A stretch of 34,679 nt of DNA from a virus (Duplodnaviria; Heunggongvirae; Uroviricota; Caudoviricetes): the IMG/VR virus record IMGVR_UViG_2695420676_000013, positions 1 through 34,679 of that record. The stretch is one strand, 5' to 3'. A program made the position numbers. Below, one piece after another: positions 12,001 through 18,000 of the stretch. Numbering within the stretch: position 1 is the first letter of the stretch; each line of letters begins with the position of its first letter.

Positions 12001-15000
12001 GTATGTTGCTCAGTGGCTGGCCATCAGTATCCTCAATCCCTGCACCAATCCCGGCCACATAGGGAATGCCGTCTTTCGTTTTTTGAACCTTCAGCATGTA
12101 CAGCGCAGCCAGGTCATCATTTGTGTCCTTCTGCACGCGCTGTATCTGCTGAATGGTGGCGCTCTGGTCTTCCAGCGTTTTACTGACCGTCTGTGTGATT
12201 TCATTGCGGGTTTCGGTGATGGTGGTCTTCATCTCCGCCATCTCATCCGCAAGCTGGCTGTTGTCTATCAGCTCCCATAGCCCCTGAGCCAGATGCAGTT
12301 TTCCTATTTTTTCCCGGAAAAATTCCAGATACCCTTCACCATCATTGCTGGGCTGCCCGCTGACTTCCACAAACGCAGATTTCCCCACCAGGTTGACGCT
12401 GCGCACGTAAAACCAGAAATCCTTCCCGGGCTTAATGTGCGGGCCGGATACACTCCACTGACTGCCGGTCCCCAGATAACGGGCAGAGGTTTCCACCTGA
12501 GATGTGTCTGCGATTTTTGCCTCCGAAAACCAGAACTCAAACTGTACCGTCGGGTCATACACCGCAAGACGCGGGACCGCCGTTATCTGAAAATACCCCG
12601 GCGTCAGTTCAATGGTGGCGGGTTTTGCTGGCGCGTTAATCTGGAAGGTGGTGGTGGCCGGTTCGCCCTGCTGGCCATAACTGTTAATTGCCCGGACGGT
12701 CAGGGTGTATTCCCCGAGCGGCAGACCACTGAAACGATGCTCTGTATCCGCAGTGATGGCGGTGGTCACCAGACGGCTGTCTTCTCCGCTTCCGTTGGTC
12801 AGGCGCAGACTGAAGCGCACACCCTTCACCACCCGCGGCGTGTCCCATTTCGCCTGTGCCAGATACTGACCGTCAGCCGCGCTCACCTCCACCGTCAGGT
12901 GCTGCACAGCCGGCGGGATGACGCTGTTCAGCGAACCGGACAGTGGCTCAAAGCTGGCCCCGTTATCCACAATGGCTTCTTTTTCCGGTACGTGCTGCAC
13001 CGCCGTGATGGCAAAGGTGCCGTCCGTGTTTTCCCGGATGGAGACACAGCGGAACAGGCGACGACGCAGTGACGGCAGGGAGAGTCCCCATACACCGTAT
13101 GTCTCCACACCATCAGGCAGGGTGCTGACCTGTATCCGGTCCGGCGCGGGGTGTGCAGTGATGGCCACGCTCACCGGCTTACCGCTGCCGTTAATCAGGT
13201 TCACCGTGGCGGCACCTGTCTCCGGCAGGGTCACCTCACGGTCCAGTGTCAGGGTGCGGCTGGCGGCATCGATGGACAGGATACGTCCGCCGGTCATGGT
13301 CCCGGCATAGTCGTTATCACAGATTTCAATAATGTCACCGGGTGTGTGACGCAGCCCCTGTGACCCGAGCGTGAAATCCACCGTCTGCGTTTCCAGCAGT
13401 CCGGTCTTTATCACCCACAGCCCGGCACGGTGGGCCTGACCGCGACTGGTGCAACCGAACGCATCCATCTTCAGCAGGTTGCGCCCGTAGCGCAGTATGG
13501 CTTCCGGGTCTTCCACCAGTTCCGTGGAGGTCTGCCAGCCGTTCTGCGGGTCGGTGTAATTCACCTCCACCGCCGTGTGACGGTCCTTCAGGGCGCTGAA
13601 GCTGTAGCGAAACCCCACGCCGTTATCATCCACCACCACATCGCAGTTGGTGTACGGCCACACCACATCCGACGGGCGGTCCTGAACGAACGTCAGCGTC
13701 TGGCCGTTCCATACCGGCATACAGCGCATCGCCGAGCAGAAATCACTGAGCACATCCCATGCCTTACGCTGTTGTGACAGGTACGCATTAAAGGTCATCC
13801 GCGGCTCTGTGCCCCCGAAACCATCCGGGACCGTCTGGTCGCAGTACTGCCCGATGGCATACAGCGCCCACTTGTCCACATCCGCCGCCCCCAGACGTTT
13901 TCCCATGCCGTAACGCGGGTGAGTCAGCATGTCCCACAGGCACCAGGCCGGGTTGTTGCTGTATGCCGGTTTCAGGCTGCCGTCCCAGATACCACTGTAC
14001 GTGCGTTTTTCCGGGTCATAGTTTGACGGCACCTGAATAATGCGACCGCGGATATGGTAGTTCACCGTCATCTGCTGACCGCCAAACTGCTCCGCATCCA
14101 CCTGCAGCCCCACAATCGCCGTGTTCGGGTAGCACTGTTTCACATCGATGATTTCGGTGTATGACGACCAGAGCGTCTTATTCTGCAGCTGGTCCGAGGT
14201 GCTGTCCGCTGTCTCCCGGACCATCCGGATGTTAAAGGGCCGCTCAGGCAGATTCTCCAGAATCACCGACGCCAGGTACTGTGAGGTGGTCTTGCCGTTA
14301 ATGGTGACATCCTTTTCCGTCACCCAGTTACCGTTACGCTGCAACTGAATCAGCAGTCGGACAGAAGAGGGATTACGGTCGCCCTTTGAGGTGGTCTCCA
14401 ACAGTGACTGCACCCCGAAGGTGACCCGCAGGCGGTCAATGTTCGCGGATGTAATGGTGCGCGTTACCGGCTTTGCCTTCGTCACTTCCACGCCCAGTCC
14501 GGTTTCAGCTCCGGAGGACTCAAAGCCTTCCGGTGGTGTCTGCTCCTGCTCCCCGGCGCGCCAGACCGCGGTCACACCGTGTATCACAGGATTGCCGTCC
14601 GTGTCCGTCAGCGGGGTTTTGTTCACCAGGATACTCTGCAGCCCCTTCACCGGGCCTTCTATCGGTCCCTCACCAATCGCATCAATCACACTCATCATCT
14701 GCGTGGATTTGAGATTATCCTTCGCCTCTCGAGGCGTGTGCGCCCTGCCGCCACCTTTGCCCATAATGTTCCTCTCAATTGGTATTATTAATCGCAGTGA
14801 TAGGATATTGCACAGCTATTGCGCGATATCATCAGAACGCTGTTTGTTACCCTGTAACCAGCAAGCTCAGTCTGTTAACGGAATTAATGAGGGTTTTATG
14901 AAATGTAAAATCATTGCTGCCATTGCCATGCTGACAGCAGCATCATGCGGATACGCAGCAGAACAGGAAGTCCCAATGAACCTTGTCAGTGCTGACGGAA

Positions 15001-18000
15001 AAGAAGTCAGCATTGGAAAAATAACCATTCAGGAGACCCCCTACGGTCTGCTGTTCACACCAGCCCTTCACTCTCTGTCTGAAGGCATTCATGGTTTTCA
15101 TGTGCACGAAAAAGGAAATTGCGCCCCGGCACTGAAAGACGGAAAACCGGTCGCAGCATTATCGGCTGGCGGTCACTTTGACCCGAAAAACACCGGCAAA
15201 CATCTTGGCCCCTGGTCTCCGGATGGACACCTGGGCGACCTCCCTGCGCTGTTCGTGACGCATGACGGAAAAGCGAACTACCCGGTCCTGGCCCCGAGAC
15301 TGAACTCATTAAAAGAGATTAAAGGGCGTTCTCTCATGCTTCATGCTGGCGGTGATAACCATCATGACCATCCGGAGCCCCTGGGCGGTGGTGGTGCGAG
15401 AATGGCCTGCGGCATCATTCAATAATCAGTCAGGTAAGGGGCGGGCCCCTTACCTTTATTCCTCAGGACGATAAATCCTTTCTCCCTGAAAAGAACGGCA
15501 CATCCTCCCTCTCTGAGTTAATGTTTTTGTCGTGACATAAGAATAATTCCTTACACTCAATCTTCGTAACGCTCCCGCAGTTCCTGTCCGTGAGCACTGC
15601 GGGATTTTTTCGCTTTTATGCCTGCCGCCCGATAACCACGACCTTTCCGCCCCCGCCTTCATCACGGGTACTGATGTCCTGGGATATACGGCGGGAGCCA
15701 ACCAGCATTTCCCCGTAAGGCACCGGCATCGGGTTACCCTGGGCAATCATGTTGTCCAGTGACGAAAAATACGTGTTCTGTCTGCCGTTATCCGTGCTTT
15801 TGTACTCCGGTACTTTAGCCTTCGGGGCCAGCATCTGAGCCACACCACCCAGAATCATGCTGGCCCCCAGAGAAAACAGCATCGTGGTGGCAGAAAAACC
15901 ACCGGCTGCCAGGGCTGAACCCCATAACGCCATTGATGCCCCGGCAGTGAAGAAAGAGCCCACGATGGCTGCCGCCCCCAGCACAATCTGCAGTCCACCC
16001 TTTCCGGCCCCGGCCAGTCGCGGCACAATGTGGATGACCGTTCCCTCACCCAGCTGTTCGTGAAGACGGGCGTACACCGCCTCCGGTGCCGTGTCCTCAC
16101 CGCGAATACGTATCTGGTACCAGCCTTCGTTCATCTGACGGCGGAATCCCGGCATCTGCATCGACAGGGCACGGATGGCTTCCGCTGCCGTGTTCACATA
16201 CAGGCTGAGGCGGCGGCCAAATCGTTGTAAATCCCCGTGAAGGCAGATGCGTGCCAGTGGCGGTGACGCCAGACAGAATGCGTTCGTCGTTGCCATTTTT
16301 CGGAATACCTCTCCCGTTTACTCAGTTGTTCAGGCAGATGGTGAAGCAGTTCACCGTTGCCGCAGTAAATGGCGGCATGATTGGCCACCGATGCGCCAAA
16401 GCAGCACAGCAGGATATCGCCCGCCTGTGCAGAGGACAGGGGCACCCGGTAAAAGCCGGTGACCGCCATATTGTCCAGGTAAAGGTTCTGACCGTTGCGC
16501 CACCAGTCATCCTCACGCTCAAAATCCGGCATATCAATTCCCGCCAGATGGTATGCATCCCGGAACAGCGTGTAACAGTCCGTCACCCCGTGCTCAAAGC
16601 GCCGTCCTGTCAGATGTGGCACACAGCGGAATTTGTGAATGTCACCCCGGCAGACCAGCCACCAGGGCAGTGCGCTTTTTATCTGCAGCCGCCGGTCAGC
16701 CTCGCTCAGCCAGGGCAGTCCACCGGGATGACTGTGGACCAGTGCCACAATCTCCCCCTGCATCTCTGCCCGCAGCCAGTCTTCCGGTGCGATACGAAAA
16801 TACGCCTCCGGCTCTGCAGAGATATTCACACAAGGGATATACCGTTCCCCCTCCGGCGTGCTTATCACGAAGCCGCACGACTCCGCAGGCGCACACCGCC
16901 GGGCATGCGCCAGAATCGCTGATTCTGTCTGTGTCATTGGATTTACTGCGAAAGTTTGTTAATGGAAAGGAAACCGCCAAAATTAGCCACCATGCCGCGC
17001 ATCTCACACCCGCGCATGCACTTGCTGCATCTGTCCTTACGGATATCCGTGGTGGGGTTGTCGAACTCATCCGCCACCGCAGGACCGTTATACCCGCATT
17101 CATCTCCCCGGTAATCCCACATACAGGTGTTCGCCAGCATGATGCGACCGGGAAACAGCGCTCCGTCCGTCTCCGTCGGTGTTGCCAGCACAAACGAGGC
17201 TGTCATGGCCGTCAGCTCTGACATCTGCTCCACCACCCAGCGGTCGCTCAGCTCCTGCTCCGGGTCCGCTTCCGGATTGCCCGCCACAAAATTCACCGCA
17301 TCCAGAAAACGGGCATACACCCGGCGGCGGACCACCGTGGCCCCCACCAGGCTCTGCAGGTCCTCCGCCATTCCGGTGACCAGACCGAACAGATTGGACA
17401 CCGTCAGCGACGGGCGGGCACTGCTGCCCTTCCCGTTCATCTCAAAGCCACTGCCGTCAATCGGGTATGCCTGATATTGCCGCCCCTGCCAGGTAACCGC
17501 CTCCCCTTTTTCATTCAGCTCATTGCAGAAAAAATACCGCTCACCACCCTGTACCGTCAGGTCGATTTCCCAGAGTACCACCCGCGGTGACTGCTCTGAT
17601 TTAACCGACTCGTTCAGACTTTCTTCGTGAATATCCTGCATCAGTTCACCACCTGCTTAAACTCCGCGCTGAATTCAACCCGCAGCATGCGAACCCGTGA
17701 TGACCAGGCGGCACAGGTCACCTTTATCTGCCGCCAGGCATAAGGCGGTGTCCACAGAAACGCCTTCCAGCCACCGTGCTCTGCCAGGAATGCCTCCAGA
17801 TGTCGGGCCTCCTCCCGGGTCACGGAAAGCGTCACACGGTATGTTTTCAGGTCAGCATTCAGCCCCGCCGCCATACGCTGCGAATACCCGTCACCAAAAC
17901 GCACTTCACGCACCGATGGCTGCGAGTTCACCTCCATATCCGGCTTCACTTTCCAGCGAAATGTTTTCATCGCCTGCCTCCGGAAAAGACGCCGCCATCA

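Follow-up and report, generated by a model that had tools for sequence, protein, structure and literature searches.

Prophage-borne Cu,Zn superoxide dismutases (SODs) are carried by lambdoid prophages of both Salmonella and Escherichia coli, and in Salmonella the SodCI enzyme of prophage Gifsy-2 is PhoPQ-regulated. Its gene is among the few Gifsy-2 genes that show high expression at a time when the lytic genes are off (PMC7067206), as a moron is expected to do. In E. coli O157:H7, D'Orazio et al. 2008 (PMC2569942) described two such genes, named sodC-F1 and sodC-F2, in prophages CP-933R and CP-933V; they differ at nucleotide 335, where a T encodes Leu in F1. Both products carry an AASC lipobox and, between residues 20 and 21, a site for signal peptidase I, have a mature form of 155 residues and share about 61% identity with chromosomal SodC. 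According to the same study, sodC-F1 is expressed in exponential phase and anaerobically, independently of RpoS, and lysogens make the tagged protein, which was relatively enriched inside Caco-2 cells and splits between periplasm and membrane, being partly lipid-anchored. The purified enzyme is a dimer (19380 U/mg) that is highly resistant to EDTA, protease and heat, and deletion mutants were sensitive to peroxide. Here we analysed a 34,679-nucleotide sequence of a virus of the class Caudoviricetes (IMG/VR record IMGVR_UViG_2695420676_000013, positions 1 to 34,679), hereafter the window, in which an earlier note had reported a sodC gene between tail genes I and J. This gene is sodC-F1, a prophage moron that has been characterised before and is annotated as a matter of routine, and its detection here is a rediscovery and not a new feature. 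We consider it very probable that it serves as a moron of a lambdoid prophage whose cargo also includes type III effector genes.

The gene occupies positions 14898-15425 on the plus strand (ATG at 14898, TAA at 15423-15425) and is an intact frame of 175 codons plus stop. Its product covers positions 3-133 of the 133-position Pfam model Sod_Cu (PF00080; E = 3.9e-32; 111.9 bits against a cutoff of 28.9 bits) and matches the NCBIfam SodC equivalog NF007628 at 218.4 bits (cutoff 165 bits). Because solved bacterial Cu,ZnSOD structures were matched at an E of about 1e-62, the fold is settled, and the full-length family match identifies a real Cu,Zn superoxide dismutase gene. All copper ligands (H68, H70, H93 and H149, equivalent to H46, H48, H63 and H120 of human SOD1) and all zinc ligands (H93, H102, H111 and D114, equivalent to H63, H71, H80 and D83) are present, together with the active-site R168 and the disulfide pair C75/C171. 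In an alignment of the window protein with E. coli K-12 SodC, Gifsy-2 SodCI and Fels-1 SodCIII, the ligands, R168, C75 and C171 were invariant; pairwise alignment with human SOD1 misplaces the first of the two cysteines at a loop insertion, and the bacterial alignment resolves it as C75. The assignment to the Cu,Zn SODs made in the earlier note, which had left it open to refutation by missing metal ligands, stands because the alignment recovered every one of them.

Decayed cargo lies elsewhere in the window, including a split espM2-like gene and remnants of tail-fibre-assembly genes, and such a setting might suggest that the prophage is defective and the gene itself no more than a SOD-like relic, inactive or in decay and akin to the ligand-poor YojM-type proteins. 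Its frame is nevertheless complete, with ligands, active-site Arg and disulfide Cys all in place, and the cassette that contains it (delimited below) is identical to that of O157:H7, whose feature-matched SodC-F1 was purified and found to be highly active (PMC2569942). We regard a relic as exceedingly improbable.

The presence of a signal peptide, also claimed in the earlier note, was borne out by the translation. The first 20 residues (14898-14957, plus strand) have a charged start, a hydrophobic core and a small-residue cleavage site, and include an AASC lipobox whose Cys17 is encoded at 14946-14948. Signal peptidase I is predicted to cut after residue 20, between GYA and A, leaving a mature SodC of 155 amino acids; the same signal motif and cut sites have been analysed experimentally for SodC-F1/F2 (PMC2569942). 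Nucleotide 335 of the window gene is T and encodes Leu112, the sodC-F1 state, and full-length identity to the K-12 chromosomal SodC is 59%. From the literature on the same sequence, the window protein would be expected to have SOD activity, to form a dimer, to be partly lipid-anchored, to be made in lysogens independently of RpoS and to contribute to peroxide resistance. The precursor would be exported; signal peptidase I would cleave one part of it behind residue 20, freeing that part into the periplasm, and the other part would be lipid-modified at Cys17 and held at a membrane. The mature dimeric Cu,Zn enzyme would then dismutate superoxide outside the cytoplasm and give the cell more resistance to host oxidative attack.

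The tail genes H, M, L, K, I and J all lie on the minus strand and carry lambda-type Pfam domains, and sodC is antisense to this operon, head-to-head with J and tail-to-tail with I. J, the tail tip/host-specificity gene (11288-14764), encodes 1158 amino acids that match seven Pfam domains related to GpJ (among them FNIII-A_GpJ, 1.2e-41, and Ig_GpJ_C, 7.4e-38), and RefSeq names its homologue gpJ. The tail assembly gene I (15616-16296) matches Pfam Lambda_tail_I at 6.4e-16, with a later start in RefSeq that gives 582 nucleotides, and K (16194-16937) carries Prok-JAB and NlpC/P60 domains. The gap between I and J measures 851 bp in the window versus 60 bp in phage lambda (I ends at 15444 and J starts at 15505), in agreement with the earlier note that the two genes are contiguous in lambda and separated here by an antisense sodC. 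In Shiga toxin (Stx) phages that lack sodC, the I-J spacer is about 250 bp long and contains no protein gene.

Alignment with Stx1a_1602, which lacks sodC, and with Stx2_EH2201, a sodC-bearing Stx2a phage, delimited a sodC cassette of 754 bp (14765-15518, plus strand; right edge approximate) in place of about 135 bp of spacer. The cassette is an insertion relative to lambda and to the sodC-less Stx phages, with the qualification that in the closest relatives the I-J spacer already holds an antisense small RNA (sRNA) gene, pasB. The left junction coincides exactly with the J start codon, and therefore the J ribosome-binding site (GAGAGGAA, minus strand, complement of 14769-14776), which lies within the first 12 nucleotides of the cassette, is supplied by the cassette. 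The narrower extent originally reported for the insertion, 14765-15470, runs from the base after the J start codon to just beyond the sodC terminator. GC content is 50.4% in the cassette and 39.8% in the region upstream of sodC (14765-14897), as compared with 57.7% in J and 59.6% in I. The gene thus lies between genes that are adjacent in related phages, has its own terminator and deviates in base composition, as morons do.

The cassette was found in 547 of 5426 complete E. coli genomes, and 542 E. coli records carry it at an identity of at least 99%; RefSeq labels the gene sodC. Its 754 bp are 100% identical in many O157:H7, O145, O111, O103, O121 and O55:H7 genomes, and the I and J flanks are also carried by 544 records. 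The same J/sodC/I arrangement is annotated in two deposited Stx2a-converting phage genomes, and the order J (minus), sodC (plus), I (minus), K, L was present in all those IMG/VR viral contigs whose SodC has an identity of at least 80% (43 of 43). These contigs and complete phage genomes bear on the suggestion that the gene is a chromosomal sodC lying within prophage debris and not phage cargo. That suggestion could draw on the closest relatives in other genera (Serratia and Pseudomonas, 62-69% identity), which are chromosomal and have no tail genes within 2.5 kb. The conserved phage gene order opposes it, as does the chromosomal sodC of E. coli, which is a different gene (59% identity) at another locus, and we give a chromosomal origin of this kind practically no credence. 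A search for a donor lineage yielded no recent one: the best 80 species-representative genomes have chromosomal SodCs of 47-69% identity with no tail genes nearby.

When 365-385 bp of the I and J flanks were added to the query (14400-16000), 17 records remained at an identity of at least 99%. By this measure the cassette seems less variable than the sequence on either side of it, as recent recombinational spread among prophages would predict. Two IMG/VR contigs carry intact sodC alleles in the same I-J slot (L126, 2501-3028, 87% identical; L128, 2501-3028, 80% identical), and both keep the metal ligands and the lipobox cysteine, Cys17. In L128, the divergent sodC stands beside I and J genes that are 95-97% identical to those of the window, a pattern in which sodC alleles appear to have been exchanged within one tail backbone. 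Such intact, ligand-complete alleles in the same slot point to selection on the SodC protein.

The Shine-Dalgarno sequence of sodC, GAGGG, lies at 14889-14893, 4 nucleotides ahead of the ATG, and the intrinsic terminator spans 15432-15461 on the plus strand, so that both the ribosome-binding site and the terminator that the earlier note had assigned to the gene were recovered. The terminator consists of a 10-bp GC-rich stem (GGTAAGGGGC/GCCCCTTACC) with a 4-nucleotide loop, followed by TTTATT; its hairpin (15432-15455) begins seven bases past the stop codon and has a folding free energy of -17.9 kcal/mol (z = -3.0 versus shuffled sequences). Both L126 and L128 retain the stem, with a loop that differs. 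Since no T run lies beyond the hairpin on the minus strand, the terminator acts in one direction, on plus-strand transcripts.

For the promoter, the firm bound comes from the literature: a 299-bp fragment upstream of the ATG drove lacZ (PMC2569942), and this fragment corresponds to window positions 14599-14897 and reaches 166 bp into J. We infer that the sodC promoter lies somewhere within these limits. The best candidate in a permissive position weight matrix (PWM) scan was TTGGTA (14779-14784), a 16-nucleotide spacer and TGaTAGGAT (14798-14806), with a score of 8.9; this score is undistinguished and the other alleles do not keep the -10 element, and the promoter was left unassigned. A PhoP box, considered because Salmonella sodCI served as a model, was likewise rejected. 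The upstream regions of the window, of Fels-1 and of Gifsy-2 have diverged too far for their alignment to be informative about common motifs.

Several points weigh against the reading of this gene as an autonomously expressed, virulence-associated moron. A scan of 14400-15800 for the sigma-70 consensus found no promoter; the score of the best permissive candidate reaches only the 85th percentile of window segments of the same size, and neither the 87% nor the 80% identical allele keeps its -10. Matches to the PhoP box had three mismatches, lay over the ribosome-binding site and were no better than those elsewhere in the window. Autonomous transcription of sodC is thus inferred from the published reporter and tagging data and not from the window sequence, and the expression evidence is that from published lysogens. 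As for function, the phenotype of the O157:H7 mutant was modest and non-additive with that of chromosomal sodC (PMC2569942), and the E. coli gene is not known to act in virulence in vivo. With these reservations, the description of the gene as virulence-associated prophage cargo agrees with the O157:H7 study (PMC2569942) and with the annotation of Gifsy-2 and Fels-1.

The earlier note had further proposed that the sodC promoter would fire against late tail transcription. The antisense orientation on which this proposal depends was confirmed; a promoter was not located by sequence in 14400-15800, and the collision is accordingly stated here as a model. In the lysogen, with the late tail operon silent, sodC would be transcribed alone from its own promoter, located in the 299 bp that precede the ATG, and the transcript would end at the gene's own hairpin terminator. 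During lytic growth, Q-modified, terminator-resistant late transcription would cross the whole cassette in antisense to reach J, and the modified polymerase would meet any polymerase coming from the sodC promoter.

This geometry could also mean that the antisense cassette mainly regulates the tail genes, throttling J or I or excluding related superinfecting phages, with the enzyme being secondary. The gene is head-to-head with J, whose ribosome-binding site lies inside the cassette, and the 299-bp promoter fragment enters J by 166 bp, so that a 5' untranslated region antisense to the J start is possible; furthermore, an antisense RNA in the late genes of the Salmonella prophage BTP1 mediates exclusion (PMC7067206). 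The open reading frame (ORF) is, however, intact with all catalytic residues in four alleles of 60-100% identity, which argues for selection on the protein. Two successive plus-strand terminators ahead of I suggest insulation and not interference, and the best promoter candidate would initiate downstream of the J start codon. A mainly regulatory role is in our judgement very unlikely, and we retain the interpretation of sodC as an enzyme-encoding moron.

The right-hand part of the I-J gap holds a second element. PasB is an Hfq-dependent sRNA of enteropathogenic E. coli (EPEC) E2348/69 (NC_011601, 1466343 to 1466261, minus strand, 83 nucleotides, probe AATCCCGCAGTGATCGCGGAGCT; Pearl Mizrahi et al. 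2021, PMC8550237, table S6), and its Hfq-dependent accumulation and target pairing have been shown for E2348/69 only (PMC8550237). We found that the E2348/69 coordinates fall within the I-J spacer, antisense to the tail genes, and end 6 nucleotides from the I stop. In the window, a PasB-like body occupies 15527-15610 on the plus strand, with a terminator stem at 15574-15581/15596-15603 and a U run at 15605-15610, and ends 5 nucleotides before the I stop. Like PasB, it runs antisense to the tail genes within the I-J spacer and has a Rho-independent terminator beside the I stop. Aligned with the 83-nucleotide E2348/69 PasB, 58 of 74 nucleotides were identical; the two sequences share their terminator, and their 3' halves are near-identical, whereas the 5' halves diverge. 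PasB has no Rfam family, and the similarity is that of a pairwise alignment. The target of the published PasB probe is the terminator shared with the window segment. The 97 bp beside the I stop (15519-15615) are nearly identical in sodC-less phages, save for one inserted T, and the neighbouring coding sequence differs; it is within this stretch that the second plus-strand terminator lies, and its hairpin folds.

The terminator stem was invariant in all copies collected, leaving no measurable covariation, and an Rfam search of the I-J region returned nothing at threshold. A subthreshold match to STnc400 (23 bits against a cutoff of 80) was merely the terminator hairpin. The anti-sRNAs AgvB and AsxR were also considered for the conserved segment and set aside, being located downstream of the late promoter PR' and not between I and J.

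We then compared the sequences upstream of the PasB segment. A promoter that matches the consensus at 11 of 12 positions, TTCACA-16-TATAAT, precedes the segment in E2348/69, PhiR5_1, Stx2_14744 and L128, the contig with the 80% identical sodC allele. Stx1a_1602 has a weaker AATAAT, and Stx2_1717 has a differing -35 region with ATATCA at -10. This promoter is absent upstream of the window segment, where the best PWM score was 2.5 versus 12.6 in E2348/69: the two hexamers have given way to the right edge of the sodC cassette, leaving the PasB-like body of the window promoterless. The body lies 70 nucleotides downstream of the sodC terminator, whose U tract is imperfect (UUUAUU). Because the promoter has been lost and the U tract is imperfect, the PasB-like RNA might be produced only by read-through from sodC followed by processing, as a 3'-UTR-derived (3' untranslated region), Hfq-binding sRNA whose level would be tied to that of sodC; we regard this as unlikely. 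Alternatively, insertion of sodC may be a natural promoter knock-out of pasB, with the segment persisting as a silent relic.

sodC is mentioned neither in PMC8550237 nor in the preprint of Zhu, Shabalina and Storz 2026, and no link between sodC and pasB is drawn in the sodC paper or in the Pas sRNA papers. That the common sodC-F1 cassette overlies the pasB promoter is the sole fresh point of this analysis, small but testable. Judged by sequence, about 540 complete E. coli genomes would count as carrying a PasB-like element, and the copy beside the cassette may be silent or sodC-dependent; the overlap therefore matters for studies of PasB distribution or function.

Two further observations concern the I-J spacer and PasB. 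In sodC-less spacers (L147, 1131-1154, which is the E2348/69 locus; L002, about 3405-3430), a terminator-like hairpin followed by TGTTTTTGTG lies on the tail-gene strand just upstream of J; the window lacks this late-operon intrinsic terminator and has the sodC cassette in its place. IS009 is described as a frequent PasB neighbour (Zhu, Shabalina and Storz 2026 preprint), and the window contains an IS009 Rfam match at 4283-4481 on the minus strand (228 bits against a cutoff of 117), in or overlapping the tail-fibre-assembly ORF 4240-4824 (Caudo_TAP).

Outside the tail operon, the window carries type III effector cargo at 5675-8844, downstream of the tail fibres. It comprises an espM2-like gene that is broken into two ORFs (5675-5938 and 6011-6265, minus strand) and looks like a pseudogene, an NleG-like gene (6448-7098, plus strand), an EspW-like ORF (7177-8235, plus strand) whose name was taken from a RefSeq-annotated locus of 97% identity, and a second, shorter NleG-like ORF (8365-8844, minus strand). 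A segment of about 2.2 kb (3341-5565) is missing from the otherwise collinear O111:H8 locus; it contains an S-adenosylmethionine (SAM)-methyltransferase-like ORF (3517-4185, plus strand), the tail fibre assembly gene (4240-4824, minus strand) and an ORF with no Pfam match (4824-5384, minus strand), and its boundaries are formed by a 128-bp direct repeat (3213-3340 and 4262-4389). A tyrosine integrase gene (1668-2765, plus strand) adjoins dusA (542-1579, minus strand) at the tail-fibre/effector end of the prophage, unlike a lambda-type prophage, in which the integrase is expected at the early-gene end. Either an arrangement specific to integrases that use dusA or the juxtaposition of two elements might account for this placement. 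The region from tail fibres to lysis genes (8878-34679) is 98.5% identical to a prophage of strain AMSHJX01, which is inserted elsewhere in the chromosome, near yodB, and has another set of effectors (nleF, nleH, nleC and nleB2). Because the two share this region and differ in site and effectors, one structural module has been combined with different cargo and integration ends.

Prophage-encoded periplasmic SODs are a textbook case of lysogenic conversion, in which a temperate phage earns its keep by making the host envelope more resistant to oxidative attack, and they mark the prophage repertoires of enterohaemorrhagic E. coli (EHEC) and of EPEC-type strains. Confirmation of sodC in the window adds no new biology, but it provides clean cassette boundaries, and the comparison with known systems identifies the I-J junction as a long-standing, orientation-specific cargo slot common to E. 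coli and Salmonella phages.

Among these systems, SodC-F1 is the closest: the window shares with it 100% cassette identity to many O157:H7 genomes, Leu112, the AASC lipobox and the 155-amino-acid mature length. The gene itself is no different, and it is the host prophage that differs, that of the window adjoining dusA and carrying NleG-like and EspW-like effectors. PasB of E2348/69 and the window segment share position, strand, terminator stem and U run, whereas the window segment lacks TTCACA-16-TATAAT and has a divergent 5' half. The lambda morons bor and lom, in the Juhala/Hendrix concept, resemble the window sodC in being extra genes between otherwise adjacent genes, with their own terminators, deviant base composition and expression from the prophage; product and slot differ, and the window promoter is not identifiable by sequence. 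Gifsy-2 SodCI of Salmonella, like the window protein, is a prophage-borne dimeric Cu,ZnSOD with a signal-peptide Cys, encoded antisense in the tail cluster (59% identity), but its gene occupies another slot, between a Lom-like gene and L. Fels-1 SodCIII of Salmonella, by contrast, is encoded in the same I-J slot and on the same antisense strand as the window sodC. It has no lipobox Cys, its 53-bp spacer to I lacks a PasB-like segment, and its non-coding flanks could not be aligned with those of the window. Identity between Fels-1 and the window is 60% for SodC, 62% for J and 69-74% for I, K and L, and because the value for SodC is near that of J and somewhat lower than those of I, K and L, sodC has probably long been co-resident with the tail module and travelled with it.

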